A DNA stretch of 63,934 nucleotides, counting the filler, from Rhizaria sp. SCN 62-66 (lineage: Eukaryota), in assembly GCA_001724265.1 (NCBI GenBank). It is 3 parts of 3 records of this genome, joined end to end, with 100 filler letters (N's around TTAATTAATTAA, not from the genome) between each part and the next. Parts side by side here need not be neighbours in the genome. Positions count along the whole stretch, not along the records: positions 52,672 to 63,934 come from MEDY01000548.1; 2 more parts are not named here. One strand, 5' to 3'. Positions within the stretch are counted from its first letter, which is position 1, and the number at the start of each line of letters is the position of its first letter. The position numbers were made by a program, and so were the translations under genes. The notes beneath the pieces are model-generated. The model was not told the DNA's origin. It saw nothing but the letters and a program-made list of their open reading frames with translations, and did no database searches. Positions 13,201 through 63,934 of this stretch are shown piece after piece.

Positions 13201-16200
13201 GGCGGAGGCAGCGCGCGCCTGTGTAGCGCTGTCGTCGGCCGCGGCGGCGGCAGCGGCCCACCGGCCCGCCTCGCGCGCCCAGCGCGCGCGCAGCAGCGCG
13301 GCGTCGGCGGTCCACACGGCGGCGGCGAGGCGGCGCGAGGCCGCGGCGCGTGCGGCGGCGGCGGCCGTGTCCAGCTCGAGCACAAGCACGCGGCCGTGGA
13401 AGGACCGGTAGCAGTGCGCCAGCGAGCGTAGCGGGCCCTCGTGTGCGAACGCGGCCTCGTCGTCGCTCTCGCCGTCGTCGCCGTCGCTCTCGCAGCAACC
13501 GTCGCCCGGGACGCCAGCAGTGGTCTTGGTCAAACTATGCGCTGCGCCGTCGCGAAGCTCGGTCAGCAGCGCGGCGTCGCGCGCGGGCCGCACGGTCCAG
13601 CGGCCGCGGCGCTCGGCGCGCGTCAGCGCCGCGGCCGCGCCGGCGCGGGCCAGACGCGCGAACTCGCTCGCCGCAGACGCGCGCAGCAGGCGCTGTGCAC
13701 TGCGCCCGCTGCCACCGCCGCCACCGCCGCCATACGCCGCCGCAGCGGTCGTGTTGTTGCTGCTTTTGCTGCCAGTCATTGCGTTGGCGCTGTCGGAGCC
13801 GGAGAGCACAGCGTCCAACGCCTCGCCAGAGGGCTCAGGGGCGGCGGGCACAGCCGCGGCGGCGGCCTCGGCGTCGGCGGCGGCCGCGGCGGGCACGGCG
13901 TGCTGCGCGCGAGAGCGGCGCGCGCCAGCGCCGGAGTGGTATCGTGCGTCATATGCGTTGTCGTGCAGATTGTGGCCGTCGCCGGCGCGGTCCGAGTCGT
14001 CGCAGTCGCTACCGCTCGCGCTATCATTGCTGTCGCTGCCGAGGTAAAAGCTCTCGTCGTCGTCATCGTCGTCATCGTCGTCGTCGTTGTCGTCGAAGTC
14101 GTCGGACGCGTGGCCACTGCGCGCGCTTTTGTTGTCGTCGCCGTCGCTGGCATCGGAGTTGTCCGCACGCAGCTTCGCCAGCAGCGCCGTTTCCGCGTCC
14201 TCCTCAGCGTCGCCACCGCTGTCGCTCTTGTGCTTACCACTGCCGCGCTTGCCGCCGCTGCCGTTAGCGCGCTGCGCCTGCATGCGCTCGATGGCGCGCG
14301 CAACACGGCGCAGGTCACGCTCGTCGCGCCGCCATGCGCGCCAGCGGCGCTCGAGCCGCAGCTGCCGCAGCCAGCGGCCGCCGCCCGCGCGCGCAGAGAG
14401 GTCCACCACGCGCCCGTCGAGCCGCAGGCAGAAGGCCTCCTCGACCGAGAGCGAAGACCGCAGCGCGAGTGTGGCGGTGGCGGCGGCGGCGGCGGACGTC
14501 AGAGCGCGACTGTCACCACAGGTCCCGGCGGTGGCGGCGGCGACGGTGCTGGAGACGAGCTCCGGCGTCAGCGCTACGGTCACAGCGCCGCCGGCGTCGC
14601 TCGCGCTGTTAATTTGACCGTGACTGTCATCGGCGCCGCTGCCGAGAGTGCTGTGGAGCAGCGCGGCGGGGTCGACGCTGATGCCGGCGGCGAGCAGTGT
14701 GCCCAGAGGGTCGCGCGCCGCCGCCGCGGTGGCGGCCACGGCTGCGTGCAGACGCGCGCGCGACGCCCCCAAGCTTGCACTCGCACTTTCACCGCTACCG
14801 TTAGGCCCAGTCACAATGGCAGGCACCGCGGCGGAGCCGGCGATGGATGTGGCCGCTGCGACGGACGCAGCGGCAGCGAGCACGCCGCGGCCCGCAACGC
14901 TGCGCACGAGCGCGCGCTGCGTCGTCGCCGCCACGGCCACAACCACATCGTCCGCACTGCTCGTACCGCCGTAGCTCACCTTGCTGTGACTGGAGCCATG
15001 ATTGTTGTTGTAAGCGGATGTGACGGCGGCGGCGTGCGCGTTGTAGCACGGCTGCAGCGCGCCCGCGGCGGCCGCGGCGGCGGCGCTGGCGGCCGAGGCC
15101 CCGCGCGCGGACGCCGCAGCGGCGCTGGCGGCGGCGACGGCGGCGGCAGCAGCGAGGTGCGCGTGCCAGCGCGCGCGGCGGCGGCGGCGGCACGCGTCGG
15201 CCTCAGCGGCGACGAGCGCGGCCGCGACCGTGGGGCGCATGCCGTGGTAGCTCGCGCCCGCGCAGACGGCCGCTGCAGCGGCTGCGGCGGCGACAGCGGT
15301 TTCGCGCGAGCGGAACGGCGCGGCGGCCGTGGCGCCCGCGGCGGCCGTGGGCGTGGGCGCGGTGATGATCGCGTACGCACGCAGCGCCGCGGCCGCCAGC
15401 GCGGGCTGCCCCGATGCGTGGGACGCGTGGGACACGTGGATGGCGCCGGCGGCAGTGAGCGGAGGGACGGGGAAGAGCGCGGGGCAGTAGCTGCAGTCGC
15501 AGCCAGGCGGCAGCGCAGCGCGCGCGCGCCGCGCCGCCGCAGCGGCAGCTTGAGCAGCAGAGCCGTTTGCACCGCTGGCGTTGCGCGCGTGTGCGTGGGT
15601 ATCGAAGCTGTCGTCGTCGTCGTTGTCGTCGTCGTTGCGCTCGCTGTCGCTGGAGCCTTGGGCGTCCGTGTCGGCGTCCGCATCGCGGCGCGCACGGCGC
15701 GGACGCGGCGCCAGCAGCAGCGCGTCAGCGCACCCGCACGTGCACCCGCACTCGAGCTCGCCGCCGGCGCCGGCGCCCAGCAGCGGCGGCGGCAGTGTGG
15801 ACGCGGCGCCCACTGCGGGTGTCGTTGTTGCGGCCGACGCAGAGCGCGCAGCGCGGGAGCGCGACGCGGACGCAGCAGCTGTTGCAGCAGCGGCAGCCGC
15901 GGCGGCCGACTTGCCCCCCTTGCCATTCGCAACTGCGGCCGCAGACGCAGCCCCATTGCCGGAGCCGTTGCCGGTGAGCGCGTGCGCGTGCGCGCAGGCG
16001 CAGGCGGCGCACTGCGCGCAGCCAGCGAGCGTGACTGGCCCCGCGCACGCAGCCTGTGCACCGTAGCCGTAGAGCGCGCTGAAGGCCGCGCTGTGCGGGT
16101 GCGCCAGCGCGGGCGCCGCGTCGCAAAACGCGCACTATGCCGGCGCGGACGCCGCAGCGCTCGCGCCGTGCTGCTGCTGCTGCTTCTGCTGTTGCTGCTG

Positions 16201-16248
16201 CTGCTTTCCGTGCGACTGCGCGCGCTGTTGCTGCTGCTGCTGTTGTTC

Positions 16249-16296
<48 letters not shown>

Positions 16297-16524
16297 TTGT
16301 TGTTGTTGGCGGACGTGCATGCGTGCCTGCGCGTGCGCGGCGGGCGGGAGCGTCCCGTCGGCGCGCGTGAGCAGGTGGAAGGCGAGCACGTCGGCCAGCC
16401 GCAGCGCGGGGTGGACCTCGTAGACCACGCCCGCGCCCGAGCCGCCGTCGCGGATTGTCAGCGAAACCGGCGGCAGCGGCGTGAAGCCGCCGCAGGTGCT
16501 GTGCGGCGGGGGGCCACCACCGCC

Positions 16525-16562
<38 letters not shown>

Positions 16563-19500: not shown

Positions 19501-19854
19501 GACGGACGCGGCGACGGGTTTGCGGGGCGCTGCAGCAGATGCAGCGCCGTCTACGTACTCCAACGGCTGTGGGAGCTGCTGGAAAGCGTCAAGGGGGGCG
19601 GGGGCGCCGCTGCGGGATCCATGGCCGCCGCTGCCGGCGAAGGCTGCGGGGGACGGGGCCGGCGGCGGCGGCGCGGCCGGGACACCTCCGGCGCCGGGCG
19701 GCGCGGGGGTGTCTTTCACTCTGGCGCACACGTCTGGGCTGGAAAGCCCGAGACGAGACAGAACCTCGCACGCCACGCGAGGACCTGACATCTGTGGGGG
19801 TGTGGAGGGGCGCGGGCGCCGTACGCAAAATTGGATGGCAAGGAATGAGAGCAT
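10204..19854 (-). CDS. Very large low-complexity protein (~3200 aa) with hydrophobic segment, poly-Q, coiled coil, (RE)n and His/Gly repeats; one in-frame TAG
   Basis: ORFs 16135-19854 and 10204-15813 are in the same frame, separated only by TAG 16135-16137 plus 107 open codons. Stop TAA. Start uncertain (19854 or ATG 19791). Confidence 0.7.
16225..16308 (-). repeat. (CAG/CAA)n poly-glutamine tract
   Basis: (CTG)n/(TTG)n run on + strand, in the coding frame. Confidence 0.9.
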
Positions 19855-24204: not shown

Positions 24205-24304
24205 NNNNNNNNNNNNNNNNNNNNNNNNNNNNNNNNNNNNNNNNNNNNTTAATTAATTAANNNNNNNNNNNNNNNNNNNNNNNNNNNNNNNNNNNNNNNN
24301 NNNN
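24205..24304. other. Artificial contig linker
   Basis: N-run flanking TTAATTAATTAA (stops in all six frames). Genes are truncated on both sides. Confidence 0.97.
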
Positions 24305-27300: not shown

Positions 27301-30300
27301 TAATAGCAACCATACCATTGGGCTCGGAGACCTGACTGATGAAAAAATACGGAACACTGGCGTCGCCTCCACTGTCTGCGCGCGCTGTGGGGGCCGTGCA
27401 GGTCAGTTTAGTCTGCGAGGTGATGCTACAGCGAGAGGACATGGCCGATGACCCCTTCGAGAGTGTACCCGCACCGATCGTGTAATAAGACGCGTCAAAA
27501 GTTGTCTCGATGGTGTGGGTTGCAGTGGGCATCTTGACGTAGAAGATGTAGTAGTAGATGTGTACCGTTGACGGCGTGATACGCGGGTTGCTAACAGTGA
27601 TCGCAGACGCCAAAGAGCGGGAGATCAGTTTGATTGAAGCAAACCCCGCCGGGGTGTTGCCCATTGTCACTGGATCGGCTGCACTGAGGGTGAAGGCTGT
27701 ACCGTCAGAATAGAGGCCGCTAATTTTGATTTGGTTAATAGCACTACTGGCCATACACGAATCCATGGTGGAGACAGTATAACCGGCAGTACAGGTGAAT
27801 CCGAACACGTTCCAGATCGCGCCCGAGAGCGCAGCAGAACACGAGAACGTGATGGAGGTGCTGGTCTGGGTGGTGATGGGGCACGAGCGCGTGACAGAGG
27901 TTCCAGGTGCAGAAAGTGAAACGGCAACAGAGTTACCGCTCGGGCAGAGACAAGTCGAGGACGCGTGCGTCAGCGTGATGGCCGCGCCTGCGGTGACGCC
28001 CACCAGTGACGGGTTGAAGCCGAACTCGCGCGTGAGCGACATCGTCGTCGCAGTGGGCGCATTCAGAGTTACGACGGGCGCTGCGTTGGTAACGTGGTAG
28101 ACGAAGGCACCGGGCGTTGTTGACGCACCCCACTTCTCGCTCGGCAACGTCGCGACTTGTGTGGCGCCAGTGCTGGCCTCGGTGACTTGGAAGCACGAGA
28201 TCGGAATGGGACCGAGGAGGGAGCCGACTTTGGCGAACAAGCGCATGGCAGGCAATGAGGTGACGGCGGTGGAACCAAAGTTAACCGTAGCGGACGTCGC
28301 GTATGCTGTTTCAGAGCCAACCAGAAGCGTGTACTTGCCCGCACACGTGCCAGTGATGGTGATCGTAACACTGTTCGAACCGGGCAGCTTAGTACCAAGA
28401 CGCATGGCGTACAGGATGACCCACACATAGTACAAGCGGCCTGTGAAGCGGTTGTCGAAATCGGCACTTGAATAAGGGACAAAGGCGTACGATTGGCCCG
28501 GGCCAGCGCGCAAGAACTCGTAGTCAAAGGAAACGACATTAGTATACGAGTCAAGCGACAATAACGTTCCAGCCGCCGTCGATCCTGTGCCTTCAGTGAA
28601 TGAGTATGCAGTGGACGCCAAGGAATAGGCAATATTTGAGTCTGACGACAAAATGATAACGTTCGACACAATGCACACATACGCGGCACCCGCAGCATTC
28701 GAGGTTGTTGTTATCAGATTCAGCAACGTTGACGTTGAGGACTGGTATTGACAGCCACCCGAGACAGACGCAGAGTTGACATTAGAAAAGCTCATCGACG
28801 TGGTGCCTGCAAATGTGCTGATTTTCACGGTCCGTGACGTGCCCGACGTTGAGTGCGTGATGGTCATTGTCAGCGTGCCAATTCGCGAGTATCCACTGAC
28901 AGACAAGGCACGGACATTATTGTAGAGCGAAGTCACGGCGAATGTGTACGTTGTACCGCCGCCGCCGCCGCCACCACCGCCGCCACCACCGCAGAGCGTC
29001 TTGAACTTCTGTGCACGGGACTTGACCGATGCCACAGATGCAGATGCCTTGGCTCCATTGCCGCCGAGGCCGCTATCACCCTCGGACTTGACCGCTGCGG
29101 TTGTCATGTTGACCACGGTTTGCTCAGAGCACGCCATCTCTTCTTCCGCGTACGTCAGCGGCTTCATCGATACCACTTCTGCTTGTGCTTTGGCCTGCGC
29201 CCGCGCCCGCGCCTGTGCGCATGCCTGGGCCTTCGCGTCATTATCGGGCTAAACGGCGGTGGTCTTCATGTTGACCACAGTTTGCTCTGACTCTAACTGA
29301 CACTCTTCTATATATAGTGGGTACATCGCAATCATACGCGCCTCCGCCTGTGCCTGCGCAGACGACTGAGTCTTCATCCCCATTCCGCGCGCGCCGCGAG
29401 CAGCGATGCGCGAGTTTGCTAGCAGCGACGCAGCGGCCACGGTGACAGACACGTCGAAGCACGCGCCCACGTCGTCTTCGTCGCTGCCGTTGCCATCGGT
29501 GTCGTAGTGGCTGTGATCGCGGACGCCAGAGAGCGCGACTGCGAGCATAGTCGCAGCGGCAGCCAGGGGCACATCGCAGGTGAACGCAGCAGCAGCGCCA
29601 TAGTCAACCACGCGCGCCTCGCGGCACACAGGACGCAGGAACGGCGACGTACCGGCCTTGGTCGCTGCGTCGGCGACTGTCGTAAGCGCCAGCGCCGGTG
29701 TGAATTCAAACGCCTTGCAGTTGGGCAGACGCATGTTGCGCGCCAGCTGTACGTGCACAGCGCGCGTTGCGGCGCTGTCGTCGGCGCGCGCGTCGGCCGC
29801 AGCGTCGGTGGTGAGCGCCGCGGTGTACACTGTCAGACGCGCGGCACCGCGGTTGAGAGCGACAAAGCTGGACGTGGTATCAGTGTCGACCTTGTCGTCC
29901 TCAAACAGCGCAGGGAACTCCGTCAGCGCGACAGTCCCGTCGTCACTGGCAGAGTTGAAGAAAGTAAGCTTGTTGTTGAGCACGAGCGCGACCGCGTTCG
30001 CCGGCAGCACGGAGAGAGAGCCGTGACTGCCGCCCGCGCTGTGTGCTGCGGCCGCGGGGGTGGCAGTGACGGGGTCGAGCCGGAAAACCCACTCGCCTGC
30101 AGTGAGTCCCAGGCAGCGGAGATTAAGGCGGCGGTCACTCACGCGCTTGGTGAGGCAGCTGTCGAGGAAATCCTCGGCGTTGCCGGACACGAAGCCCATT
30201 TGCACGCCTCTTGAGCCCGCGCTCGAGCTCTCGCCAGTGCCGTTGTGAGCACGCAGCGTGAGGCCAGAGTCGGGGCCAAGCACGATCGCGAACTCCGTGT

Positions 30301-30940
30301 AGGCGCCCGCAGCGTAAGGCAGCGTGAAGGCGACGTCAAGTGCAACGTCAATGGCGGCGTCAAAGGGCGAACGGATGACGGGCACGAGCGAGGTGGCGGC
30401 CCGTGTCACCGTGAAAGCAGTGACAGGCGGTGGCAGTGACAGGGCCAGTGCCGCTGCGTCAGTCTCGTCGGCGCTTTCAGGAGCCGGAGCGGCGTCAGCG
30501 TCACCCACACGGAGACGGAAGCAGTCTGCGATGATTGACAGAGGCTCGATCGCGGTGCCGAAGGCCGTGAGGTTGACGTTGATGTTGGCCAGAGAGAACT
30601 GGGCGGAAGTGGCCGAGGAGCAGAGGAGGGAGCCTGGGACAGAGGAGTGACGGCAATGGCGTCCTTTCGGGATGACAGCCACAGCAGAAACGTCAAGCAA
30701 ATCTGCGTTGGGGCACGACCAGAAGGTCTGAATGGGGACATCCTCAGCATCTTCGATGGCAGTGACGTTTACATCAAGGGTGACCGAGGTGTGGCCAGCC
30801 TCGAGGTACGTGGTAGTTGTAGCCGGCACGATGCGGGCTGTGTAGTGAGCTGGGGCGACAAATGAAGCCGCGGATATGATGAACCAGATCGACACAATGA
30901 CCAAGAGATGCCTCATGGTCCGGGAAATGGGGAGGTACAT
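24305..30940 (-). CDS. Giant secreted/surface Ser/Thr-rich protein (>2200 aa, 3' truncated); one in-frame TAG
   Basis: Signal-peptide-like MRHLLVIVSIWFIISAASFVA. ORFs 29249-30940 and 24305-29176 are in the same frame, joined across TAG 29249-29251. Internal repeats with spaced Cys. Confidence 0.78.
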
Positions 30941-35343: not shown

Positions 35344-35733
35344 TGTGCTTTGGAGACTCAGAGTTGTAGCCTAAGCAAACACGAATTAACGGAAGCGCAA
35401 TTCAATACAGGTACTGTCGTGGTGCGGAACAGCTTGAGTGCTGACGGAAAGACAGGGGATGAACAGGAGAGCTTTTTGAGATGGGATCACGTAACGGTCA
35501 CTGGGACTTGGCAGTCGCGCTGGAGTGTGGTGACGAGATGAGTCGTTCCGAAGTCCCTGCAAATGTCACTATGATCGTTATTTTGCTTCAGTTTTCCAAT
35601 GGTGTGATTTTAAACAACCAATGTTGTTTTATTCTTACATTATTCTGGCTAACACTGAGACTGCGATCCTCATTTCACATTCTCTAATTGTCGCTTCATC
35701 ACTTGTCGGACCTAGGGGTAGACCCAGTTCGCC

Positions 35734-38029
35734 ATGATGCTCGGGCGCCTCCGTGCTCTGCACCGGCTTCCTTCCCCGCTGACCAGCAGCTTTGCGTTGG
35801 GGACTTCCGTGCTTGCGCCTACATTTGGCGCTGCCCCGAACCGTCCCGCGCTCGCCGCACGTTCCGAGGCGCGCTTTTCATCCTCCTCTGCGTTCCCTCA
35901 TGACTCGTGCCCGATCCCGCCTGCCCACCTCTTCAACCCGCCGCCTTCGCCGGACCCGCTCGTGCCCAGTCTGTCTTCGGAGGATTTCTTCCGCAATGTC
36001 TCTCTCTTCGCGTCGGGCAGCGAGTTATCGAGCTCGCTGTACGCGGAGAAGTCGCGCGTGTCCTTCTCGCCCTCGTCAGTCTTCGCGAACTGCGACTTGT
36101 CACTGGAGCACATCGACGCTTGGGGCTGGGACTACGACTTCACGCTCGTCAACTACACCAACGAGCTCGCCGCGTTTGTCTACCACCGCGTGATCGCCAT
36201 CCTCGCCCACGAGCACAAGTACCCTATCCAGCCGCTGCTGTCGTACGAGTACGACCCCACGTACGCCATCAAGGGCATCCGCTTCGACAAGAAGACCGGA
36301 CTCTTCTTCAAGCTCGACCAGTTCTCCAAGCTCCAGAAAGACTGCGTGTACCGCGGCAAGCAGCGCCTGCCTGTCAGCGAAGTCATCGAGGTCTACTCCG
36401 GCACCGTTGTCTCTCAAGAGGTGCTCGATCGCAGCTACACATTCGCGGACCTCTTCGCACCGCCAGAGGCGTGTGTGCTGGCCGACGTCACTGACTGCCT
36501 CCGCGCAGCCCAGGTCGACTTTGACCCGTTGTTTGTGCAGCGCGACGTCCGTGAGGCCGTCGAGCGCCTCCACAAGTCGCGCGAGGTTCGTTTACTTAAC
36601 ACATCGCTCGTGGTTTATATAACAGTATCAAACTTTTTTGTCATTGACATCCAATGCGCTTTTTTCTGAACGGTAGACGCCATGTTTTGAATTTTTAATG
36701 AACTTTTTTTTTTCCAAATTTTTGGTTTTTATTAACAAAATTCTCTTAATGTCATTATATCTTTCTATATTGTTTGTCTTTGGGTTAACACAGGTGCACC
36801 GCGAGGTGATGCGCTGCCCGTCGCTGTACATCGAGCCCAACCCGCGTCTGCTGCCGTTCTTGCGCCGCATCCGCGACGCCGGCAAGCGCACTTTCCTGCT
36901 CTCCAACTCTCCGTTTGACTTTATCGACATGGGCATGGCATATCTCCTCGGTACGCCCACCGCCGGCGGCGCTTGGCCGCGGCCGCGCTTCGCACCCTCA
37001 CAACCACAGGCATCGTCGTCGTCGTCGTCGTCGTCATCGTCGGATTCCGCGGGTCTGCAGTCGTGGCGCGACCTGTTTGACTTGGTCATGGTCTCGGCAC
37101 GCAAACCCGACTTCTACAGCTCCAACGAGCGCTTCCGCGAAGTCCAGCCTGAGTCGGGACTCGTCTCGCTCGCGCCCGCGCGCAAGCTCGAGCGCGGCCG
37201 CGTCTACGCCGGCGGGAGCTTCGCCGAGCTGTCCAAGCTCACGGGGCTCTCGGGGCAGCGCGTGCTCTACCTGGGCGACCACATGCGGAATGACTTGGCG
37301 CCTGTGGCTCAGAGCGCGCGCTGGCGCAAGGGCGCGATCGTCCGTGAAGTCGGCGAAGAGCTGCGCGTGATGCAGACCCCGCGCGTGCAGGGCCTGCTCT
37401 CGGCGCTGGCCAAGCTCGAGGCGCTCGTTGCCGCGGGCCAGTCGATCGCGGCCGACGACGTAAGTCTGCAGACGCGCCGGCTCAAGGAGATGCGTGGTAT
37501 GGTGCGGCGCGCGGTGCGCGAGTCGTTCAACAGCAACTTCGGCAGCGTGTTCCGCACAAACACCGAGAAATCGCACTTTTTCGCCGATGTGACGCGTTTC
37601 GCAGATATCTACTCCGCGGATGTGACCAATTTCCTGCACTATCCGGTCAACTACACCTTTTACGCGTCGCGCGGCGTCTACCCTCACGAGGCCCCACTGG
37701 TGCGCTCAGTGTCTCCCCCCGAGCACGAGCACGGCAGCGGCGACGCGCAGCACACTGCCGCTGACAGAGTCCCACAGCAGCAGCAGAGAGAGGAGGCGCA
37801 GCAGAGCGCGAGAGCGGCCGCGGTGGTCAAGAGCGCGGCTGCAGTGGCGATGGACGAGCTGGGACACACTCTGCAGGCGCTCATCGCGATGCCTTCCCCT
37901 CGCTCACACGCACACTCGCACGCGCATTTGCAGACTCACGCTGCGGCGGCGCAGCAGCAGCAGAGAGGGACGTCTGCGACTGCAGCGGCTGCGGAGGAGC
38001 AGCCGAAGCAAACAGCATATGCGACTTGA
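35734..38029 (+). CDS. HAD-superfamily cN-II/NT5DC-type 5'-nucleotidase with probable mitochondrial presequence
   Basis: GWDYDFTLVNY (motif I), FLLSNSPF, ARKPDFY, VLYLGDH, FGSVFRT. Intron 36586-36793. Stop TGA. Confidence 0.92.
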
Positions 38030-48982: not shown

Positions 48983-51092
48983 TTAAATCGTCGCCGCGAT
49001 CGGATTCGCACTCGGGGCAGCACTCGCGGCGGCGGCGGCGAAGACCTTGTTGGCAACCGCGGTGGCGGCGGCGAGCTTGGCCTCAGCGGCGGCGAGCGCC
49101 TTGCGCGCCTCGGCGACCTCGCAGAACTTGGCGGCGGCGGGCAGCGCGGCGTCGGGGTAGCTGCCGGCGGCGATGTCGTCGCGCGGGTTGACGTGCGGCG
49201 CGACGGCGGGGCGTGCGTACCGCTCCGGGTCGATGGGCGCGACGACGGCGGCGGCCGCGGCGGGCGCGCCGGTGGCGACGGCGGCGCGGCGGGCCTCGGA
49301 GGGCAGTGCCAGCGGGTGCTGCGTGGAGATGCCGAGCCGCGTCCACACGTCGAGCAGCGCGGCGACGAGGCGCTCCATCATGGCGTCATCGTGCAGCGGC
49401 GAGGGCGTCAGGCGCAGGCGCTCGGTGCCGCGCGGGACCGTGGGGTAGTTGATGGGCTGCACGTAGATGCCATGGTCGGTCAGCAGCAGGTCCGTGGCGG
49501 CCTTGCACAGCGCGGCGTCGCCGATCATCAGCGGCACGATGTGGCTCTCCGAGGCGATGAGCGGGAGATCCACGGCGCAGAGACGGCGCTTGAGCTCTGC
49601 CGCGCGCGCCTGGTGTGCGTAGCGCTCTGCCGCGCCAGACTGCAGGTACGTCACGGAGGCCGCGGCGGCGGCGGCGACGGCGGGCGGGATCGACGACGTG
49701 AAGATGAACCCGGGCGCGAAGCTGCGGAGCGCGTCGATGACGTGGGCCGCGCCTGCAAGGTAGCCGCCGTAAACGCCGAAGGCCTTGGCGAGCGTGCCAG
49801 AGACGAGGTCGATGCGGTGCTCGAGCCCGCGCTGCTGCGCGACGCCGCCGCCCTTAGCGCCGTAGAGCCCCACGGCGTGGACTTCGTCGAGGAAGGTGAG
49901 CGCGCCGTGCTTGGCGGCGACGTCGCAGATCTGCTCGATGGGCGCAATGTCTCCGTCCATCGAGTAGACCGACTCGAACACGACGAGCTTCGGCGCCGCC
50001 GGGTCGTGCTGCGACATGAGCCAGTCGAGGTGCGCGTAGTCGTTGTGGCGGAAGACGAACCGCGGGGTGTTGGCGTGACGCACGCCCTCGATCAGCGAGG
50101 CGTGGTTGAGCGAATCCGAGTAAATGTGCAGGTTCGGGATGAGGCGGCCCAGCGTCGCAATCGACGTGTCGTTGGCGACGTAGCCCGAAGAGAAGACGAG
50201 CGCGGCGTCCTTGTTGTGCGTCGTCGCCAGCGCGCGCTCCAGCTGCGTGTGGTGGGGAGTGGTGCCAGAGATGTTGCGAGTGCCGCCCGCGCCCGCGCCG
50301 GACTTGCGGACCGTGTCGTGCATGGCGCCCGTGACGACGGGGTGCTGCCCCATGCCCAGGTAGTCGTTGTTGCACCACACCGTCACCGCAGCCGGCACCA
50401 CGGGCGCGGGGCACGCAGACAACGCACTCGCAGTCGCGCTCGCAGCAGAATCATCAGCAGAAGCAGCAGTGACGGGCGCAGAAGAAGAGGACGTGACGGG
50501 CGTGTGGTTGAGCGCGGCGGGGAACTGGCCGGCAGCACGCTCGATGTCGAAAAAGACGCGGTAGCGGCCCTCGTTGCGGAGCTTGGTCATGTTGTCGGCC
50601 AGCGCGGTCGACGCGCGCACCGCGGCCACGGGGGTCGTCGCAGAGACAGGGGTCAGCGTCGGCGCAGTCAGGACGGGGAAGGAAAGCGTGGCGGCGGGCT
50701 GGGGCGCGGCGACGGACGCGGACTTGGCAGCGGGGTCAAGAGCGGGGGCCGCGGCGATGGATGAGAAGCGCTGGCGCATAAACGCGGCGCCGGCGGGACA
50801 CGCGTTAAGCGAGTTCAGAGCGGAGCCTGTGGTAAAGCGAGAAGATGAGTGCAGAGAGAGAGATGGAACGAGAGAGAGTGTGAGCGGGAGTAAAATGGCG
50901 ACGGACATGGGGTGAGTCGTTGAGACGAGGGTTTCGGGTTGAAGGGCCAAAAGACGTACTAGACATGTTGCCGAGAAAAGGGCACGAGCCACCGGTGCGC
51001 GGGGAGAGCACGGAAAAGATGTCGTTGGACATTTTGGAGTGAGCGCGGCGCATGAAGGGGCACAGAGCCGAGACCTTTGACAGTGACGCCAT
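48983..51092 (-). CDS. ALAS: Mitochondrial 5-aminolevulinate synthase
   Basis: Exon 1 50960-51092, intron 50827-50959. [39 protein letters not shown] (PLP lysine), [18 protein letters not shown]. Stop TAA. Confidence 0.96.
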
Positions 51093-52084
51093 GTGCACTT
51101 CTGGGTGGTGCGGGCAACGCGGTAATGCGGGGAAAGCAGCATGAAAAGACAGCGGGTAAGTCTCGGGCAAAGCGGAATATATTCTAGAATAATTGGTCAT
51201 TTACAAACGCAATTATTAACCGACGTGAGGCGACGAATGTGTGTGTAAACGATCGGTAAAGTTCTGGGCCCATGTGCTTTTTTTTTTTGCCGTCGTTGGA
51301 TGGGTCGTCGGACAGCCGGTACCGAAAAAGTCGACCACACAACAATAACCGTCAAAGTCGATATTAATATAATACACGCGAGTATCCGCGATTATAGTTA
51401 AACAAACTGAATGCCAACATATAAAACGTTAATTAACGCTTGGAAATAGAGCCAAATATCTCATTTGCTTTTATGTTCAGTATGTATCCTGATAAAATTG
51501 AGGCTAGCTCGGCTGTCATGTTGTTCACAAATGCACTTACTGTGATCAAAGGGGATGCAGATGACAAAAATATGGCTTTAATAACGCCAGACTAAATTAA
51601 AACAACATCAATATATGCTACTTTGTTTTGCAATACCCCCAAAGTCGATTTTCGTCGAGGAATGTGGCTCCAATAAAATATTACTGTAGGCTTAATATTA
51701 TTATGAAAATGAGAGGATGAACAGAAGTGGTTGTTGAAACTTAGAAAAGAACCCAATATGTTTGCGTCATAATTAAATGTCAGCGAACACTTTTTCAATC
51801 ATCGACAAGTATACCTGTGTTCAAATTCGCAATGTCGCTGCTCCACCCGGACCGTAGAAGGAGAGAGAACAACTGTATTGACCAGGCCAGTTCGGGTATT
51901 TTGTCCCGCGGTTCGGATATTTTTGTCCCTTGTAACAGTATTGTCCGTGTTGAGGTTACATTGGAAACAGCCACATTCACCGGTCACAACACTTTCAAAA
52001 TACAGCTGAACATGTATTAATACATGAAAGGAGCAAAACACTATGTATCAATAACATCAAAGGAGAGAGTTTCGCAATTTCAGG

Positions 52085-52571: not shown

Positions 52572-52671
52572 NNNNNNNNNNNNNNNNNNNNNNNNNNNNN
52601 NNNNNNNNNNNNNNNTTAATTAATTAANNNNNNNNNNNNNNNNNNNNNNNNNNNNNNNNNNNNNNNNNNNN
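52572..52671. other. Artificial contig linker
   Basis: Same N-TTAATTAATTAA-N spacer as at 24205. Confidence 0.97.
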
Positions 52672-53379: not shown

Positions 53380-55587
53380 TTAGAGGCAATATTGAAGAGC
53401 TTTAGCTGTTTTCATGGCCATCTCAGTCACACTCCCTCGCTCGTGATCAAGCATCAACGCAATGTCCCGCAGTGTTTGAGTCACCTGAAGCGCCTTAACA
53501 AGGCTATCCTCATCCACACTACTCGTATCTTGCTGCTCCAAAGCCGTCTCAGACCCATCTTGCGACTTGACCTCCACAGTGGTCGTCGTCGCGGCAGCTG
53601 ATGTTGTCGCAAGCAATAACACGTTCATGCCGACACTGCCAATGCCGACAGCGTCAACGCAAAGCCGCACAAGCCCAAACAAAGCGGAGCACGCCTGCTT
53701 ATGCTCACCGTCACTGTCACAGCCACAGGCAAGCTGAGTGAGCGTGAGCAAGTCGGCGAGCAGACTCGGGTGGGCCCTCAGCACCGTGGCCAGCGCGTGC
53801 TTCAGTGCACGCGTTGCGGACGACGACTGCTTCTCAGGAACACTCACGGCAGCAGCTGTGTGAGCGACAACACTTGCGCCGGTGTTGTTGTTGTCGGTCG
53901 CGAGGGAAGGAGCGAGAACTGTCGTGACATCGCGGGCAAACGCTGCGAGACGGCCAAGCACGGCACTAACTTCATCTGCGGCGCTTAGACGGCCGACAAG
54001 CTCGAAGGCATGCGTGAACTTGTCGCTCACAGTTGTCACGGTCGAAGACGCAGTGGTCGTAACGTTGCAAGCGCTCGCGCTGGTGTTAGCAGAGGCTGAT
54101 GACTCCTCCGCCAATGCGATGACGACGACGTCTAAGGGCCCCAGCTCCCCCTTAGCCACCGCTTCACCCACATTTTCGTCAACGCTCGCATCACTGCCGT
54201 TGCTACTGCTACTGCTGCTGCTGTTGCTGTTCTGAAGCTGTTCCAGGAGAAGTTTCTTACGGCGCTCGCGCTCCTTGTTCACGGCCGCGCCGCCGCCCCT
54301 GGTCTCCTCTGACACCACCAGCACAGCGGCTTGACTTAAGTAACACGTCGCCGAGGGCCCGTAGGGGTCGGAGAGCTCGCTCAGCGCCACGCCGCACCAC
54401 TCGCACTGCGGGCACGGCGGCAAGGGTCCGTCCGCAGCAGAGGCAGCAGAGGTCGCACTGCGAGAAGAAGAACCGTCACTGGTGGAGTCCGAGTTCGAGG
54501 GTTGACTGTGACTGATCTTGGCCGCTGCTTCCGCGCACCGGTGGCAGCCGGTGGCGACCGCATGCACAGCGCTAACCCAGGCGTCGACGTCGGCCATACG
54601 GTCGCGTACGGTGGCGATCATGCGGCCGTGCTTCTTCTTGCCGAGCATGGCGCTGCCGGTGACGCCGACGACGACGCGCGCGCGCGCCAGCAACGCGGTG
54701 ACCGTGAGCAGCGCCAGGTGGCCGCCGTGCAGGTGGTCAAAGGTGCCGCCTACGACGCTGCCGGGGTAAATGGGACAGTGGACAGAGTCTTCGTGGGCGT
54801 GAGGGTCGACGGCAGATGCGCAATCAATCGCAGTCTCAGTTGCAGTCTCGATGCTCGTGTTCGTGTTGCAGGTGCTGACGGTGTCTAAAGCGGGGACGGG
54901 AGCAGTCCATGCAGTGAAAGCGCGCTCAACAGCACTGGCAACAGCATCAGTGCCAGTCGCAGTCTTATGCTGAGTGAAAGAACCTTCAAGAGTAAAACTG
55001 TTGTCACACTTGGCATCCCAGATACCGAAGTCATAGGAGAGAAGAGAACCATTTCCAAGCCCCAGCGCGGTGACCGCGACTTCCCTGGCCTGCGTCAGCG
55101 CCTCGGGTGTGGTGGCAAAGCAGGGAAAGACGACGGAGCGCGCGTAGAGACCGTGGGCGGCGGGGGACTGCGCGCCGCGAAGACGGGCGAGGTGCGAGTA
55201 GTACCAGGCCAGCAGGCGCGACAGGAGACGAGGGTAGTGGCGCAAGGCGGGCGGGAGAGCCAAAAAGAGGACAATGTGTGGCGTCGAAGAGGTCGAGAGT
55301 GCGGAGAGAGCACGAAGGTGGAGCGCAGCAACGGCGGAGCCGAGCGAAGAAGAAAGCCAGTGCTTGGGCCAAGCACTAGAATTATCTTCAGTCTGCTGAA
55401 CGTCATCAGCTCCCGTAAGCGCAAATGAAAAGATCTGGGAAAATATACATTCGGTGGGACGCGATAGCGGTGTCACACTATCGAGATCAAGCTGACTGGG
55501 AAGAGATTGGAAGGAAAAAGTGGCGAGTAGAGCCGACGGACGAACCGGTCCGAAGACGTACTGGTCAATTGTGTCTGAAACACTCAT
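53380..55587 (-). CDS. HxGH nucleotidyltransferase, phosphopantetheine adenylyltransferase (Cab4/CoA synthase PPAT-like)
   Basis: VVGGTFDHLHGGHLALL, VVGVTG, LSDPYGP, LVVSEETRGGGAAVNKER, SSSATR. Stop TAA. Confidence 0.85.
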   Translation of the reverse strand: MSVSDTIDQYVFGPVRPSALLATFSFQSLPSQLDLDSVTPLSRPTECIFSQIFSFALTGADDVQQTEDNSSAWPKHWLSSSLGSAVAALHLRALSALSTSSTPHIVLFLALPPALRHYPRLLSRLLAWYYSHLARLRGAQSPAAHGLYARSVVFPCFATTPEALTQAREVAVTALGLGNGSLLSYDFGIWDAKCDNSFTLEGSFTQHKTATGTDAVASAVERAFTAWTAPVPALDTVSTCNTNTSIETATETAIDCASAVDPHAHEDSVHCPIYPGSVVGGTFDHLHGGHLALLTVTALLARARVVVGVTGSAMLGKKKHGRMIATVRDRMADVDAWVSAVHAVATGCHRCAEAAAKISHSQPSNSDSTSDGSSSRSATSAASAADGPLPPCPQCEWCGVALSELSDPYGPSATCYLSQAAVLVVSEETRGGGAAVNKERERRKKLLLEQLQNSNSSSSSSSNGSDASVDENVGEAVAKGELGPLDVVVIALAEESSASANTSASACNVTTTASSTVTTVSDKFTHAFELVGRLSAADEVSAVLGRLAAFARDVTTVLAPSLATDNNNTGASVVAHTAAAVSVPEKQSSSATRALKHALATVLRAHPSLLADLLTLTQLACGCDSDGEHKQACSALFGLVRLCVDAVGIGSVGMNVLLLATTSAAATTTTVEVKSQDGSETALEQQDTSSVDEDSLVKALQVTQTLRDIALMLDHERGSVTEMAMKTAKALQYCL

Positions 55588-55804: not shown

Positions 55805-58800
55805 TCAATAGTACAACATAGTAACGCCCTTGCGCGCGTTTAGCCATGCCTGTGCCCTAATCCGCTCGCGCTCATGTTCTGCCCACAAATCCCACTTGTT
55901 TTCGATTGCATTTCCCTCACGTTGCTTCTTGTTACTTTCGCCAGCAGCCACTGGTTGCGCCTTTGTTGCAGCGCCAGCATCAATCTCGGCTCCGCACATC
56001 GCACCAGACTCATTGCGTCGGGCACGTGCGCATTGAGAGCCAGTGTTGCGACTGCTGTTCTGATTGCTGCAGTGACCATGTTCGTGATTGTTCCGACATT
56101 GATTGCGACAACTGTTGTGGCCGTTCGAAACGCAACAGCCATGATTTGTGCAAATAGTCACGGTGTGCGTGTGCGTAACAGGAGCAGGCGCAACACCGAT
56201 TGCAGCCGCAACAGGCACGGGTGCAGGCGCAGGCGCAGGAGTAACATGAGTTAGGGGAGTGGCGATTGCAGGAATTGTGTTCGTGATGGTTTGCGTCGGC
56301 GCAGTCGCTGGTGCAGTGTTGTTCATGACGGGACTCACGGTCACCGTCACCGGCGCGCCGCTCACAGTCACAGGCGCGGCGCTTAGAGTGACCGGCGCAG
56401 AGTTCACAGTCACCGGTGCAGCGTTCACAGGTGCGGGAGTCGCAGTCGCCGGTGAAGCAGGTACTGGGGCGGGAGCAGTGTCGACTGTCACGGTCACCGG
56501 CGCAGCGCTAAGAGAGACAGGCGCGGCGCTGTTGGTGACAGTAATAGGCGCCGCATTCTGCGTAATAGGAGAAGAGTTGTGCATTGTAGTCACGGGAGTC
56601 GTGCTGTTGCGACATACTGGCTCACCGGCGCTGTTGACACAAGGCACAGCTGAGACACTGGAGCTTGCGGCGAGTTCAGCGCGCTGTTCATCAGTGCTTA
56701 CAGTGCCAGCATCGAGACTGTCTTTGTCTTTAGCCGTACACTTCGTAGGACCAAGAGCAGCAGCTGCAGCTGTAGCCACGGCTTTGGTAGCGACAGCAGC
56801 AGCTTCAGAAGCGGCTTCCGCGGCGGCGCGAGCTGCGCTGGCCGCTGCGGTCGCTGCAGCAGTGGCGCTAGCAGCGGCAGCTTCAGCAGCTGCAACACGT
56901 TGCTCAGTCGCAGCGCAAACAGTGTTTGTACTCATGCTCGCAGTCGCAGTATGGATGGTTGAGCTGGCGACGTTGGCATTGTTGATGTTGAGATTTGAGT
57001 CGTCATCGCTGCGCTGATCACTCTAACCACGATTGCGCTCAGTACTGGGGAGAGCGAAGTCATCGCGAACGTTAGCAGCGCCCGACTCACACACTGAAGT
57101 AATACTCTACACTCGCAGATCCGCGTTCACAGGCTCGACCGTCACCCGCTGCCCGAGTTGCACAGCAGGCACTGCAGTCGCGGCAGACGCTGTAGAAACT
57201 GCAGGAGCTGTCGCCGGCGCAGCGCCCGTGTTGCCGCTGCCAATGTTCACGCTGGCCCCGGAGCTGGCAACCACAAATACGCCGCCTGGCGCAACGGTGA
57301 AGGACTGCGCGCCGCCGGCAGCGATGCTGGAGCCGGAATCAGCGCCGGCGCCAGCGCGGGCGTTGCCGTGGCGCGCGCCGGGACTGCGACTCTGGCTGTG
57401 GCTATGATGATGTGAGTGACCGTGCTTGTTGCTGTAGTCGCAACCGCGATCGTGACGACGACTGTGGCCGTGGCCGTGGCCGTGGCCGTGGACATGGCTG
57501 TGGTCGTGATCATGGTTGCGACCGTGATTGTATCTCGGACTGTGGTTTCTGTCATTGTGACGACGGTGATGATCGTAGCGATGAAAACTGTCGTGAAAAA
57601 CACTGCCATAATCGCCGTTGTTGCAATGGCTGGGGATGGGGTTGCGGCTTGCAGCGTTTCCGTCGTCAGCGCCTGCGTTGTAGCCACCGTTGCGGTTGAT
57701 CGGGTGAGAGTCGTTATCGCTCTCAGAGGGACGCAGTAAGACGCTGACATCAACGCAATCGCTTCCGCTGCTCTTGCTAATGTTGTCCTGGCTATGCATG
57801 CTTTCGTTGCAAGTGCCATGATTGTTGCCGTTGCGACTGCCAGAGCTGCGACTGCCGTCACTAACGCGGTCATCGGCACCAGCGCCAGCACCAGCAGTGG
57901 CGGGAACTGGCGCAGGCCGATGCGCGTGCGCGTGCATGTGAGCGTGGGCAGGAGTGAGGGCAGAGGCGGTGGCGCTGCCGTTGGCCGTCATAGTCACGTT
58001 TGGAGACTTGCCACCACTGCTTGAGCTGCACTGACTGTGGTTGCCGTTTCTACTGCTTGTGCTGCTGCCACTGCTGTTGTTGCTGCTGCACGGAACCGAG
58101 CGCGACTGCGAGCGTGACTGCTGTTGGTGCTGTTGCTGTTGCTGAGGCTGCTGCTGCTGATCTTGATGGTGATGACTGCGACTGTGAGTGGATTCACCAT
58201 GATCTGACCACAGCTGGCCATGAGAGCGCGGCTTAACTAAGCTCAGAGGCGGCTTAACAAACCGAGAGGACTGTGGGTACAAGCCCTCATAGCCGACATG
58301 ACCCCCTTGCTGCTCGTAGTAGTCGCTACCATCATCATCGAAGTAGCTCCCCTTCGCAGCAGTTGTTGGGGTGGCGTCGAGAGCGGCCTCTGAGCGCGCG
58401 GCCTCGGTGTGATGAGAGAGCGCGGCCGCGGCTGCCAGCGCCGAAGAAGAGGATGACACGACTCGTCGAGCCGCAGCCAGTGCGGCCGCCATCGACGCGT
58501 CCAGTGACGCTGTCGACTGCGTGGGCGAGGCCACAAAGCGCGACTGCTGCGGAGAGGACTTCGCTTGTAACTGTGGGTGTGTTTGCGAGTGTGATTGAGA
58601 GCGTGATGACTGTGACGGAGTGGGCGTCAAGTGACCACGATTCTCAGCAGCTGCAGCCGTAGCCGCACTGATGTCGTTGAGTTTGTCGCGCGCGACACTG
58701 CGTTTGCTGTTGACACTGGCAGCGCTCTTGTCGTCATTGTTGTCCTTATCGCTCTTGTGGTTTGAACGAGAGCGAGGAGCAGCGATTCGAGTAGTCACAA

Positions 58801-60733
58801 CACCAACACCGGCATCTACAGCAGCACCAGTGAGGTTTCGACCGGAGCTTAGGCCAGGACCAACGCTGACAACGCCAGCGCTTGCGTTCGACTCTGAGTT
58901 TCCATTGGTGTCAGCAAGCTTTTGTTGTTGTTGCAATGTAATTCTCTTGACTTGCGCCGACTGAGACGACACAGAAGACGATGACGAGGAGGACGCAGAA
59001 GGCGAGTACGTCGAGACAGGTGCAGTCGCAGCTGCGTTGCCGTTGTGCTTCTGAACGTCCTTATTGTAGCGCATGTACCTGTCACTGTCACCACTGTCAT
59101 TGTTCGGGGCAAAGCAAGGCATCGACTGAGCGCCGGGCGTCGCGGCCAGACCGCCGTTCTGCAGCTGCTGCGGCTGCTGCTCTTGGACCACAACCGGCAT
59201 AGCTCCACGGTCGCTGCCATTGCTGCTGCGCCGACTAGAGCTCGAGGCAGCGTCGCTCATGCGACTAAGCGTGTCTTGACCCACCTGCTGCTGTTGCAGT
59301 TGCTGCGGCGGTGGACTCGTGTTCGGTTTGCTTGGGTTCTTCAGTACATGCTTGAGCGACTGCGCTGCTGACAGCGGCGGCGACGGCCGCGGCGACCTCT
59401 GCTGCTGCGACTGAAAGGCCGCGGCAGCGCCGATAGTGATCCCGGTCACGGACGAGCCCACCATGCTGCCGTCGTCGCGCCAGAGCTTGGCCCGCAGCGC
59501 GCGCGCCCAGGGCTCGTCGCCCCTCTCCAAGTCGAGCTCCTCCGAGTCGCTGCCGCTGAGAACAGACGCGTTCGCAGCAGCAGTCGGCTTGGCAGCAGAC
59601 GTGTCGTTTGCGCCTGCGCTTGCGTTGTCGTTGGAGGTAAGCAAGGTCGTATCGGTCGCGTTTGCAGCTTGTGCCGCGCTGGCAGCTGAGTTAGCGTCGT
59701 TGAGAACGGCAGGAAAGCGGCGGCGCAACTCTTCAATCTCAAACAGCGCGGCCTCGGTCGCGGCGGCCCTAGACAGCGCGGCCGTTGTGTTTTCACAATC
59801 GGTGCCGCTGCCGCTACGGTTGTTGGGACTGGTGTTGCTGTCAGCGGTGTTGTTGGGGTCGGCATCGATGAAATGACTGATGTTTGTGTTGAGGGTCGCG
59901 TCACCTGCGTTGATAGCGCTGAAATTACCGCTGTTAACGTGACTGTCGTTAATAACGCGGGAATTGCGATCGTTAAAGGGACTAGCACTAGTAACAGCAC
60001 TCTTAACTCTCACCTTGCTACTGTTGTTGGTATTAACGTTACTGGTGTTGTCTGCGGCAGGACGGGGCTTTTCGTATAGCGCGTGCAACGCACGCGACTT
60101 TTCAAGCGCCTTGGCCGCCTCGGCCATCACAGCGTCCTGATACTCGTCGGTGGTGTACGCCGCCGGAAGCGGAGACGCTATAAGCTCCTGCCGCTTTTGT
60201 TCCAATCTCTGTTCAAGCTGCTGCTGCAGCTGCTGCTCCCGCTGCGACTGCCGCTGCGCTTGCAACTGCGCTGGCAGAAAAACAGAGCGCCCCGCGCTGG
60301 TGCTCGGTGCTGCTGTGAACGCAGTCGTTGTCGTCGCCGGTGCTGGCGCCGTCGCGGCAGTTGATGTGTGAGGGGGGGTCCACTGCGTCGGCGGGTCCGT
60401 TTTGAGCCCCCAGCGGGCGGCGTAAGCGTCAAGCTCCTGCTGCAAGGCTGCTGCAGCCGCCGCAGTGTCAGCGGAAGTTGGCGAAAGCGATGACGAGCTT
60501 GAGGATCCACTGCCAGTGGTGGCGTTTGCGTTGGTGCTGACACTGATGCCGGTTTTGGAGCCGACAGGATTTGGCAAGATCGGGCTACTGTAAGGCAGAA
60601 AAGCAGGCGGTGGAGCGCCAAAGTTCTCAATTTTCCATGCTGCAGCAAGGCTTGCGAGACTCTCAGAGAGCATGGCGTCCTCTAAACCTGGCGATGCTGC
60701 GTTGTTGGGAGTGGCGGGACCAGAGTCTGCCAT
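55805..60733 (-). CDS. Large low-complexity Ser/Gln/His/Thr-rich protein (~1640 aa); two in-frame TAGs
   Basis: ORFs 57107-60733 and 55805-56935 are in the same frame. The 174-nt gap has only TAG 57107-57109 and TAG 57023-57025 as stops. Stop TGA. Confidence 0.7.
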
Positions 60734-63700
60734 CTATGCGATGACAGATGACATCAAGAAAGGTATCACAGCAGGGATTTGGGTTATGTCAGTTCCTTTT
60801 TGAAAAACAATTTGAATTTAGCGCATTATTTAATATATGAAGCATGCATTTGCATTAACGGACAACTGAATGCATGGAGATGCGAAACTCAAACGTCCTC
60901 TCAACGCTCCATCGAGCACGAGCCGTTGAGGTGGGCACCGTGAGGACTTGTGGTGAGCACATTAACACAAGGATATAAGAACAAATACGTTTTCCATTGT
61001 CGCTAATTTTCATGTGGGACATTAGGTACGTACGAGTAAGCAACATCCACTCAGTTGTTTAAGTTCGATGTGTGTGTTTCATGATTCATCGATGTTTAGG
61101 CTGCGTCTAAGTAAAGTGACACATCATCGTTGGAGTTGTTTTGAACACGCAAATGTTACATTTATTAGTTTGAATTAGAATCGAATCACAACCATGAACC
61201 ACTATTCTTACACTTTTCATCATATTCACACCTTATTTCAGGGACTCGCATTATGCAAGTGCTGGGGAAGCGCTTGTCTACTGTCTCTAACACTATCAGA
61301 ACGTCTGACGTTCTCACACTAACGAGTATTTAACACTTTCTTTTGCATTTTTCATTTGGTATTGCTGGATAAAGTTGTTATCATAAGTCAAGAATAACAA
61401 CACACGACAACAAAACCAAAACAAAACGCGACTAAGCACACATGTTCACTCATGACAACAGCAATGTCATGGTTTGAGCACGCTCACCTAGCTGAGTTCT
61501 GCTATATAGCAGGAACAGAGAAGAAAAGTCAAACGCAGAGTAAGGGTGGGAACAAGAACGAAGAGATATAAAAACGCGGATATAAGGGAGAGCACAAGGA
61601 GTTTGTGGTGGAGGTGTGAGGGAGCGAGAGCGACGGTGAAACAGCAATATCACGCGCTTTCTGACGAGTGTGCCGAAGCACAAACACACACACACACACA
61701 GTACACAGAAACCAGGCGAGCAACCAAATGATCACGCAAGCAATAGAGAGAGAGAACGACAATGACTAAGAGAGATAGTAGGAGAGCACTTTGAGGCGAG
61801 AGCGGGAGCCAAGGCGATGTAAAAAAAAGAAAATAAAGTACTTAACAGACTAACACACAAAACACACAAAAACGAAGTAGTAAATAATGTGGTAAGGAGA
61901 GGGGAATGAAAACAGTAACACGGCAGCGATGGCGGACAGTGTTTGAGACGGGGTTAGGAGCAGAGACAGACTGTGACTGAGACAGTGACGGTGTGACGGT
62001 GACTGACTAACTGGCGATACTGTTTGTTTTGAGTACTTTAGAAGAGGGTCATTATAATTATTACAGAAATAAGAACTAAAAGCATGGCACTAAAACATAT
62101 GAACAAAAGAGAGATGAAAGAAAAGAAACCAAGATAGAGAAGAAAAATAATAAACGAGGGTACGCTAATAGAGGCTGTCGGGCATTGGCACTCGCGCTCG
62201 CATTGGCACTCGCAATTGTACTCGCATGTGTACTCTGATGATCCGCACTCAGTCCACCGTTAAGGTCGAAAAATTGAGGAGCGCGATGCTGTGTTGTTGT
62301 TGTTGTTGTTGTTGTGTTGACGCACCAGAGAGCAGCAGTTGTGACGTGACGACTACAGCAAGCAACACCACGAACACATGGCGCAGAGATGGAATCAGAG
62401 ACAAAGAGAGCGAGAAGTATGACGATGAAGAGAAGGAGGATACAGCTTATAAGTCATACAAGCGTCTCTTGCCACACAGAGTACACACGCGTACACGAGT
62501 ATTTGTTCTTTTCTACTTCCACAACTGGTGAGAATAGAAAGTTAAGAACAGTGCAAGTGCAGATGTGCGTGCGTGTGTGTGAGAAGAGACAAATCACATC
62601 CGTGTGGCACGGAATTCACAGTAGAATGAATGATAAAGAGCAAAGCATAAACACATAGCTAAACAAGGAAGGGAATGAACGACGGAACAAGAAGGAGGAG
62701 AAGAACAAAAAAGAACTTATCAATTTGAAGAATAATTATGTTACGTTTCGTATGTTACGTTACATGATATTATGGGTGACCAACGACACAATGAGAGCAT
62801 GAAATGAGGCGGAGTCGGGACAACACATACTCGTAATGAAAACACTAAGAAAGAATGCAATGACGCGAGAACCACAAGCGAACAGACAACAAAGCAGGGG
62901 TAAAAAGAAAAGGGGGCGACGGCAAAGAAAGAGACAAGAGAGAGAGAGAGAGAGAGAGTAGGGCGAGAGGAAAGAGAGCCACTGACAAAGATAAGAGGTG
63001 TTTAGTCAGATCATTTCTTGCGTCTTACGTACTCGCACTGTCCAGGAGCAATGCACTGAGGATGTGATCAGGGCAGGACGCAGCTGGCGAGCGTGAGTAT
63101 AACAAAACAGGAGACGACGATTAAGTTGTCTGTTACTGACGACTGACGTTAGCATTACTATTATTCCAAGTAACATTAATCAAGCGAAAACACACTCCAC
63201 ACACGAGCACCTAAACGGTGCGAGAGATGATATCGGTTCGAAGGGCGTAAAAGGATGATCGTAATGGGTAATGACACGATTAAGCGAAAAGAGTTGTTAA
63301 AACGACGGGGATGGGATTGTGTGGGTGTGGGTGCGAAAAAAGAAAGATAAGGGGGTGACACAACAAACAAAGCAACAGTTTTCAATTAACACGAAAAGAG
63401 TTAACACAAAAAGACCTTAGCTGCCTTGTTGTCGAGTCGAAAAATTAAATTAAGCAGACATAAACAACATAAACATATAAATCAAGTCAAGCAGAGTAAC
63501 ATGCACGCAAGCAAGCACGCATGAAAAGATACACACAGCTACGATTGAATTGCCAAACGAAGCGGATACGTGTCCCTGCATGAGGAAAAAGACAAAGATA
63601 CAAACATTCACATAAGAAACATTAGTCGCGGTCACTTAAGTCAGCCAGACAGTTGGTCATTGTAAGAATGCGTGGCCGTGCGTTGCTGTGTGTGACTTGA

Positions 63701-63862
63701 GAGCGCGACTAAAAAACAATCATCTATCGCAAGGTGCTGACATGAGAGACATCACACCCATTGAGGCAGAAACAGAAACAAAAAAGGGTGACAAGTTCAC
63801 CACATGAGGCAATCAACACGGACGCACATGTCGTAAGAGAACGCGACTAAAAGAGCACATGC

Positions 63863-63865
<3 letters not shown>

Positions 63866-63934
<69 letters not shown>
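63866..63934. repeat. Compound (TG)n(AG)n microsatellite
   Basis: Direct reading of the window end. Confidence 0.95.

Follow-up and report, generated by a model that had tools for sequence, protein, structure and literature searches.

A variant nuclear code in Rhizaria sp. SCN 62-66 in which UAG is probably a rare glutamate codon

In the nuclear genome of Rhizaria sp. SCN 62-66, UAG is almost certainly a sense codon. The explanation that we consider likely is a variant nuclear code in which UAG, seldom used, stands for an amino acid, most likely glutamate, and UAA and UGA are the sole stops; under it, two open reading frames (ORFs) bridged by a pair of in-frame TAGs on contig MEDY01000548.1 (G000:C548) form a single gene. 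The pair lies in a stretch of 63,934 nucleotides (the window), made of contigs joined by N runs at 24205-24304 and 52572-52671, and neighbours across these joins are not real. The whole assembly comprises 34.9 Mb in 714 contigs.

The frame that holds the pair runs on the minus strand from an ATG at 60733 to a TGA at 55807-55805 (55805..60733), and counts 1,642 codons if UAG is sense. It is free of TAA and TGA throughout, as an earlier note on this DNA had reported for the region of the pair, and the peptide quoted there is present on this strand. The first TAG is codon 1209 (57107..57109) and the second codon 1237 (57023..57025), 84 nt apart on the minus strand; both are read as sense, probably Glu, a meaning that comes from the genome-wide tests described below. 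Between them lies a linker of 27 codons (57026..57106, minus strand) which, as first described, is coding-like, with a GC content of 0.54 against 0.61 in ORF1 and 0.58 in ORF2, and a codon score at rank 27 of 60 gene windows. The AT-rich signature of the flanking non-coding DNA (GC 0.37-0.40) is indeed absent from it. The openness of the linker alone is unremarkable, since the first 29 codons past the first TAG lack TAA and TGA in 9,704 of 20,000 simulated sequences. None of 20,000 simulations kept all 433 codons past the first TAG open, and ORF2 is thus coding. A third in-frame TAG, absent from the earlier note, adjoins the ATG (60734..60736, minus strand); it could be an intron acceptor, a triplet of the 5' UTR, or a sense codon following an ATG at 60754. 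Small exons upstream of the ATG at 60733 are possible. The region at 61000-63934 is AT-rich, shows signals resembling splice sites, could contain very short exons, and may hold the true 5' end of the gene.

There is a small probability that the code has changed but that these two TAGs are not sense, the interval being an intron, a boundary between two genes or part of a decayed gene. An in-frame 90-nt GT...AG at 57112-57023 would excise both TAGs, and a GTGAGT...CAG stretch lies between them. However, GTACG is the commonest intron donor of this genome (37 of 102 candidates) and none occurs near 57109-57023, the linker included. The GC content of the linker also exceeds the mean of 0.37 in 126 GTACG introns, although these were chosen for low GC and the comparison is partly circular. 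ORF2 is not preceded by an AT-rich gap. Also against this reading is a contig from run X4, which belongs to another study; it crosses 56831-57340 without a gap, albeit with 6 differing letters. On its side is the lack of RNA cover and of a homologue. No RNA contig lies over the TAG site, nor does any piece of the polyA run X7 cross it; polyA-run contigs elsewhere in the frame (58331-58587 and 59123-59603) may be DNA, and run X7 also covers apparently non-coding DNA. The predicted protein is of low complexity, rich in Ala, Ser, Gln and His, and its family is unassigned: it has no Pfam match, a search of the Atlas with its last 165 residues gave no usable hit, and the viral contigs hold no match to the TAG site. 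Since a low-complexity protein has here neither a family match nor RNA, the site alone can neither give the amino acid nor exclude an intron. The earlier note had called the pair the strongest single site for UAG reassignment; that ranking is not borne out, and eRF1 and Thg1 are far stronger sites than the 57109/57023 pair. The reassignment itself is supported by other loci of the genome, the pair being weak evidence on its own. The earlier note left the amino acid unnamed, and it is these other loci that point to Glu.

The loss of UAG as a terminator is seen at gene ends. Overlapping loci totalling about 1 Mb were sampled from the 34.9 Mb genome; in them, 50 likely gene ends lie before AT-rich DNA, and they use TAA (31) and TGA (19) but never TAG; stops before GC-rich DNA are TAA in 8 cases, TGA in 12 and TAG in 7. 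When coding-like frames were followed past their stop in 872 kb of overlapping loci, none of the 59 that met TAA and none of the 35 that met TGA remained coding-like, against 8 of the 13 that met TAG. A ninth TAG stays open with a score just below the cut-off, and the other four sit 13-41 nt within introns. Stops with 40 coding-like codons on both sides are TAG in 28 cases, TAA in 3 and TGA in 1. A looser filter of 22 codons gives 36, 9 and 14, respectively, which indicates that the looser list contains noise. No sense use of UAA or UGA was observed.

In-frame TAGs occur within conserved exons of eRF1, Thg1, SUV3, a UBE2J-type enzyme, kinases, a ubiquitin-like protein, a MORN protein and CIMR. 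A database SUV3 protein terminates exactly at the TAG, and its occurrence on 7 contigs, drawn from three sources, speaks against an isolated assembly error. Standard gene calling thus truncates proteins of this genome, SUV3 being an example. Among 142 kinase matches, 9 are interrupted by TAG only, 1 by TAA only and 4 by mixed stops, and five of the nine TAG-only sites are true exon sites. Of the kinase sites set aside, those of L154 and L161 are intron acceptors, that of L162 is probably one, and that of L158 lies in an insertion; L155 was left out of the scored set. In the AAA family no stop was found in 22 matches, and of the three TAGs met in 88 Helicase_C matches two are intron acceptors.

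To keep the standard code, all these TAGs would have to be put down to errors, to pseudogenes or to leaky termination with a weak suppressor tRNA at work, or UAG would have to act as both stop and sense. UAG is indeed very rare, without a single true site among the 40,947 residues aligned for the dyneins, the CUA tRNA is single, and the gene-end sample is small. Yet the sole eRF1 match found, as well as Thg1, would be cut in their conserved cores; TAG closes none of the 50 genes sampled; a lone TAA or TGA almost never breaks a domain, as the kinase counts illustrate; and the SUV3 TAG was seen again on seven contigs. We therefore hold this reading, in either form, to be exceedingly improbable. 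The dynein paralogues were also tried as a residue test and rejected, because all 8 TAGs met in their 40,947 aligned residues lie, as judged by eye, at intron edges or within introns and carry no residue information.

The eRF1 gene is itself interrupted. Its TAG stands in the second exon, in the N domain, at the position of human E107 (locus L031, on G000:C63), and the gene ends in TAA. The TAG is followed by AAA, a codon rare in this genome (269 against 3,751 AAG), the gene otherwise using preferred codons. Compared with 116 homologues, the protein carries T32S and G57S, at positions where all 116 have Thr and Gly, respectively, together with T58K, L126M and K130Q; T32S turns the GTS motif into GSS. 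In its closest relative (P0005, 84% identical), T58K, which is common to these two only, and L126M are present, T32 and G57 are unchanged, and Val stands where the TAG is here; this protein may help to date the code change. According to PMC5304391, N2 of the G in the third position of UAG is bonded by Thr32, and Iotanema, with UAG as sense, has T32G. The effect of T32S on UAG recognition is not certain, since Ser retains the hydroxyl. Among metagenomes, a scan for relatives of eRF1 yielded 4 loci, three of them distant, and one of these (L195) itself ends in TAG. Locus L198 shares both the eRF1 translation and its TAG, and is perhaps not independent.

The four best-conserved TAG columns are all acidic, Glu dominating two and Asp the other two. 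In eRF1 (n=120) the column holds E 110, D 9 and V 1. The Thg1 TAG falls in the SDE motif at the position of human E77, which we take to have a catalytic role, and all 4 PDB sequences have Glu there. The UBE2J column (n=150; the query carried E at this place) holds D 104, E 18, S 12, N 7 and Q 1, and that of SUV3 (n=119) D 95, E 6, N 4, Q 1 and K 1. Likelihoods on fixed trees for eRF1, UBE2J and SUV3 together, with 30 homologues per family, are D 0, E -1.1, A -6.7, N -6.9, S -7.7, Q -8.7, K -9.0 and L -12.2. Pfam scores, summed over 10 sites, rank the residues otherwise: E 686.3 bits, K 683.2, Q 681.1, S 675.2, D 673.9, Y 668.5, L 666.8 and W 661.8. Minus Thg1, which sets E 3.1 bits above D and 3.8 above Q, the sums for K (600.9), E (599.9) and Q (598.5) lie within 2.4 bits. 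At the MORN site E stands 5.0 bits above D, while K, L and Q exceed E by 0.8-1.9 bits. The eleventh and last domain site on which the residue inference draws is that of the ubiquitin-like protein, where E and Q tie at 95.3 bits. In a rough hand sum of both kinds of score, E leads D by about 7 log units (about 4 minus MORN) and Q and K by 9-10. Glu alone does well in both the Pfam and the family-column tests, since the family columns disfavour Q, K and L, and Thg1, MORN and eRF1 disfavour D. That UAG means Glu, and that the two TAGs at 57109/57025 are read so, has in our judgement a good probability.

Gln, the commonest reassignment and that of Iotanema, and Lys draw on part of the same data. 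Own paralogues of the ubiquitin-like protein carry Gln (CAG) at the site, several TAGs sit within Gln runs, K or Q fit the sites of kinases L153 and L159 as well as E or better, as at MORN, and a repeat around a TAG at 29251 has Lys. But Q occurs just once in the UBE2J column, once in that of SUV3 and never in that of eRF1, it falls 7.6 log units under E, and Thg1 disfavours it. A TAG that yields Glu within a Gln run is only one transition (CAG to TAG) away. The CUA tRNA, moreover, is unlike the tRNAs for Gln of the genome, so that we give hardly any probability to Gln or Lys.

A single tRNA gene with the anticodon CUA was found at G000:C84:76008-76080, by ARAGORN on 12 of the 26 matches of a pattern search whose yield was about control level. 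The gene is followed by a T run and adjoins a GC-rich gene in the style of the genome. It is single-copy by DNA search, and neither exact-pattern nor DNA searches of the collected loci gave a second CUA tRNA. No UUA anticodon was met among the tRNAs typed or in 16 pattern matches in which UUA was allowed for some acceptor types. The 'Pyl' label that ARAGORN gives the CUA tRNA follows from the anticodon, and the body is Glu-like: in a comparison with 24 tRNA types, a set without tRNA-Asp, -Phe and -Pro, the best match is Glu(CUC), with 47 of 73 nt (64%). Next come Glu(UUC) and His with 40, and Lys with 39, the two Gln tRNAs reaching 33 (CUG) and 29. The first five acceptor pairs are common to both own Glu tRNAs, the T stem is as in Glu(CUC), and G73 is as in Glu(UUC). 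The variable arm is short, unlike those of the Leu and Ser tRNAs of the genome. The Glu identity elements of E. coli, as given in PMC9976931, include U35, A37, U11-A24, U13-G22, A46, the absence of base 47, and C36; all are kept except C36, although these are bacterial rules and the host is a eukaryote.

It is very unlikely that UAG is sense but means Asp, or a mixture of Glu and Asp. Asp prevails in the columns of SUV3 and UBE2J, it occupies the TAG site in two paralogues of kinase L160, and it leads Glu by 1.1 in the fixed-tree likelihood. The tRNA has two of the five Asp determinants listed in PMC9976931, G73 and U35. It is, however, without the other three (G34, C36 and C38), G73 is present in the Glu(UUC) tRNA of this genome too, and CUA is one change from CUC but two from GUC. 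Thg1 and MORN prefer E, by the margins given above, and the eRF1 column is E in 110 of 120. The proteins of this genome have E in 3 of 20 Asp-majority columns, and D in 1 of 20 Glu-majority columns. Glu is thus preferred to Asp mainly through the tRNA, Thg1 and the MORN repeat.

The change to UAG as Glu may have taken place in four steps. UAG was dropped as a terminator, as the gene-end sample shows. The grip of eRF1 on the third-position G would have been lost through T32S, perhaps aided by G57S and T58K, changes that are present in the gene but whose effect is presumed. A diverged copy of tRNA-Glu(CUC), the gene we found, acquired the anticodon CUA and would be charged with Glu. Sparse TAGs would then have arisen from GAG or CAG by single changes. 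Because CUA pairs with UAG and not with UAA (PMC5304391, section 9), UAA would remain a stop. The rarity of UAG is consistent with a codon that was captured in a GC-rich genome and has since spread slowly: TAG accounts for none of about 2,600 Glu-type codons in the dyneins, and for 2/52, 1/112, 1/47, 0/49, 0/19 and 0/32 of them in six genes of the window. The UAG of eRF1 could even serve as a sensor in a feedback loop, in which eRF1 made in surplus, if it retains some activity on UAG, would curb its own synthesis. The full scenario, a new code with UAG as Glu and UAA and UGA as stops, in a free-living cercozoan soon after codon capture and with eRF1 feedback, is doubtful.

In nuclear codes UAA and UAG are nearly always reassigned jointly. 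No report of UAG as Glu with UAA as a stop was met in the literature searched, which mostly lay outside subscription papers, so one may exist. The UAG-only nuclear codes described in PMC5304391 include those of the rhizarian exLh (Leu) and of Iotanema spirale (Gln); PMC11687900 adds phyllopharyngean ciliates from TARA (Leu), Hartmannula, Trochilia and Protocruzia (Gln) and Scotinosphaera (Ser), the last two at second hand. As in these, the present genome has UAG as sense, UAA and UGA as stops, and a CUA tRNA (present or predicted in the others). TAGs within conserved exons, the lack of TAG at the sampled gene ends and an altered eRF1 also fit a code of this kind, and Thr32 is the residue changed in Iotanema too. 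The mode of the code is like those of Iotanema and exLh with a different residue, here acidic and most likely Glu. Leu as in exLh has the lowest score among the candidates and falls 19.5 bits and 11 log units under E, and the variable arm of the tRNA is short; Gln as in Iotanema is nearly absent from three columns, with Q at one paralogue site. UAG is also far rarer here than in exLh, which had 384 UAGs in 71 genes.

Among codes with UAG as Glu, that of Oligohymenophorea sp. PL0344 likewise relies on a tRNA-Sup(CUA) closest to tRNA-Glu; in that code (PMC10553269), UAA is Lys, UGA is the only stop, and ten CUA tRNAs are 69-93% identical to those for Glu. Here, in contrast, UAA is the main stop, and one CUA tRNA is 64% identical to Glu(CUC). 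Peritrich ciliates and Blastocrithidia also read UAG as Glu, but they read UAA as Glu too (PMC11687900; PMC12153298), and Blastocrithidia reads UGA as Trp (PMC12153298), whereas neither codon is seen as sense here. The genome does not belong with the UAR=Glu codes or that of PL0344, as no TAA of 59 leads on into coding-like sequence and TAA is the commonest gene end. If true, UAG as Glu with UAA as a stop adds a code table, and it may be a missing intermediate toward the code of PL0344 and those with UAR=Glu. Both halves of the mechanism are visible in one genome: the tRNA with anticodon CUA, and a substitution in eRF1 at Thr32, the residue also altered in Iotanema. Samples from treatment plants and bioreactors in several studies contain the organism or near kin, so that it may be obtainable.

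The runs that contain this uncultured organism are labelled bioreactor, wastewater or sludge. Its genome has GT-AG introns, about 11 dynein heavy-chain loci and ALA synthase, which point to a flagellated eukaryote with mitochondria. It is probably a cercozoan, as sequence likeness suggests: among the best 120 ALA synthase hits, two Paulinella micropora proteins are the only ones from species-named eukaryotes. In a quick ALA synthase tree the protein groups with unnamed environmental sequences, and Cercozoa is not proven by this tree. The hit lists of eRF1 and SUV3 show no clear lineage, and among the ubiquitin copies read there is no polyubiquitin, whose insertion is a mark of Cercozoa. These include diverged single copies ending in GG-HPQ, one internally deleted (L071:2300-2540 and 3800-4030, on G000:C3), and a ubiquitin-like domain in a 629-residue frame (L194, on G000:C681). 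The match to the 18S rRNA gene (G000:C706:4459-8903) spans 4,445 nt against 1,831 in the model, and the gene thus holds large insertions or introns. A tRNA-Tyr(GUA) gene with an 11-nt intron (L008:2709-2793) has U1-A72 as its first pair; eukaryotic tRNA-Tyr usually has C1-G72.

Other genes of the window also carry TAGs. A lone in-frame TAG lies at 16135..16137 (minus strand) inside a frame of 3,216 codons (10204-19854), and another at 29249..29251 (minus strand) in a frame (24305-30940) with a minimum of 2,212 codons, at a place where an internal repeat has Lys. The product of the latter frame, on the minus strand, is Ser/Thr-rich, is no shorter than 2,212 residues, carries an N terminus like a signal sequence and a short repeat, and runs off the contig end; it looks like a surface protein by sequence, and gave no Pfam match. 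The ALA synthase gene at 48983-51142 (minus strand), which encodes 5-aminolevulinate synthase, is without introns, and its product falls in a clade with good support that comprises 11 environmental sequences. At 53380-55587 (minus strand), a protein of 735 residues has a cytidylyltransferase-like domain and is, by likeness, perhaps a phosphopantetheine adenylyltransferase. On the plus strand, a papain-like cysteine protease (21700-22900) and a 5'-nucleotidase-like gene (35722-38029), both with introns, were named by eye from their motifs.
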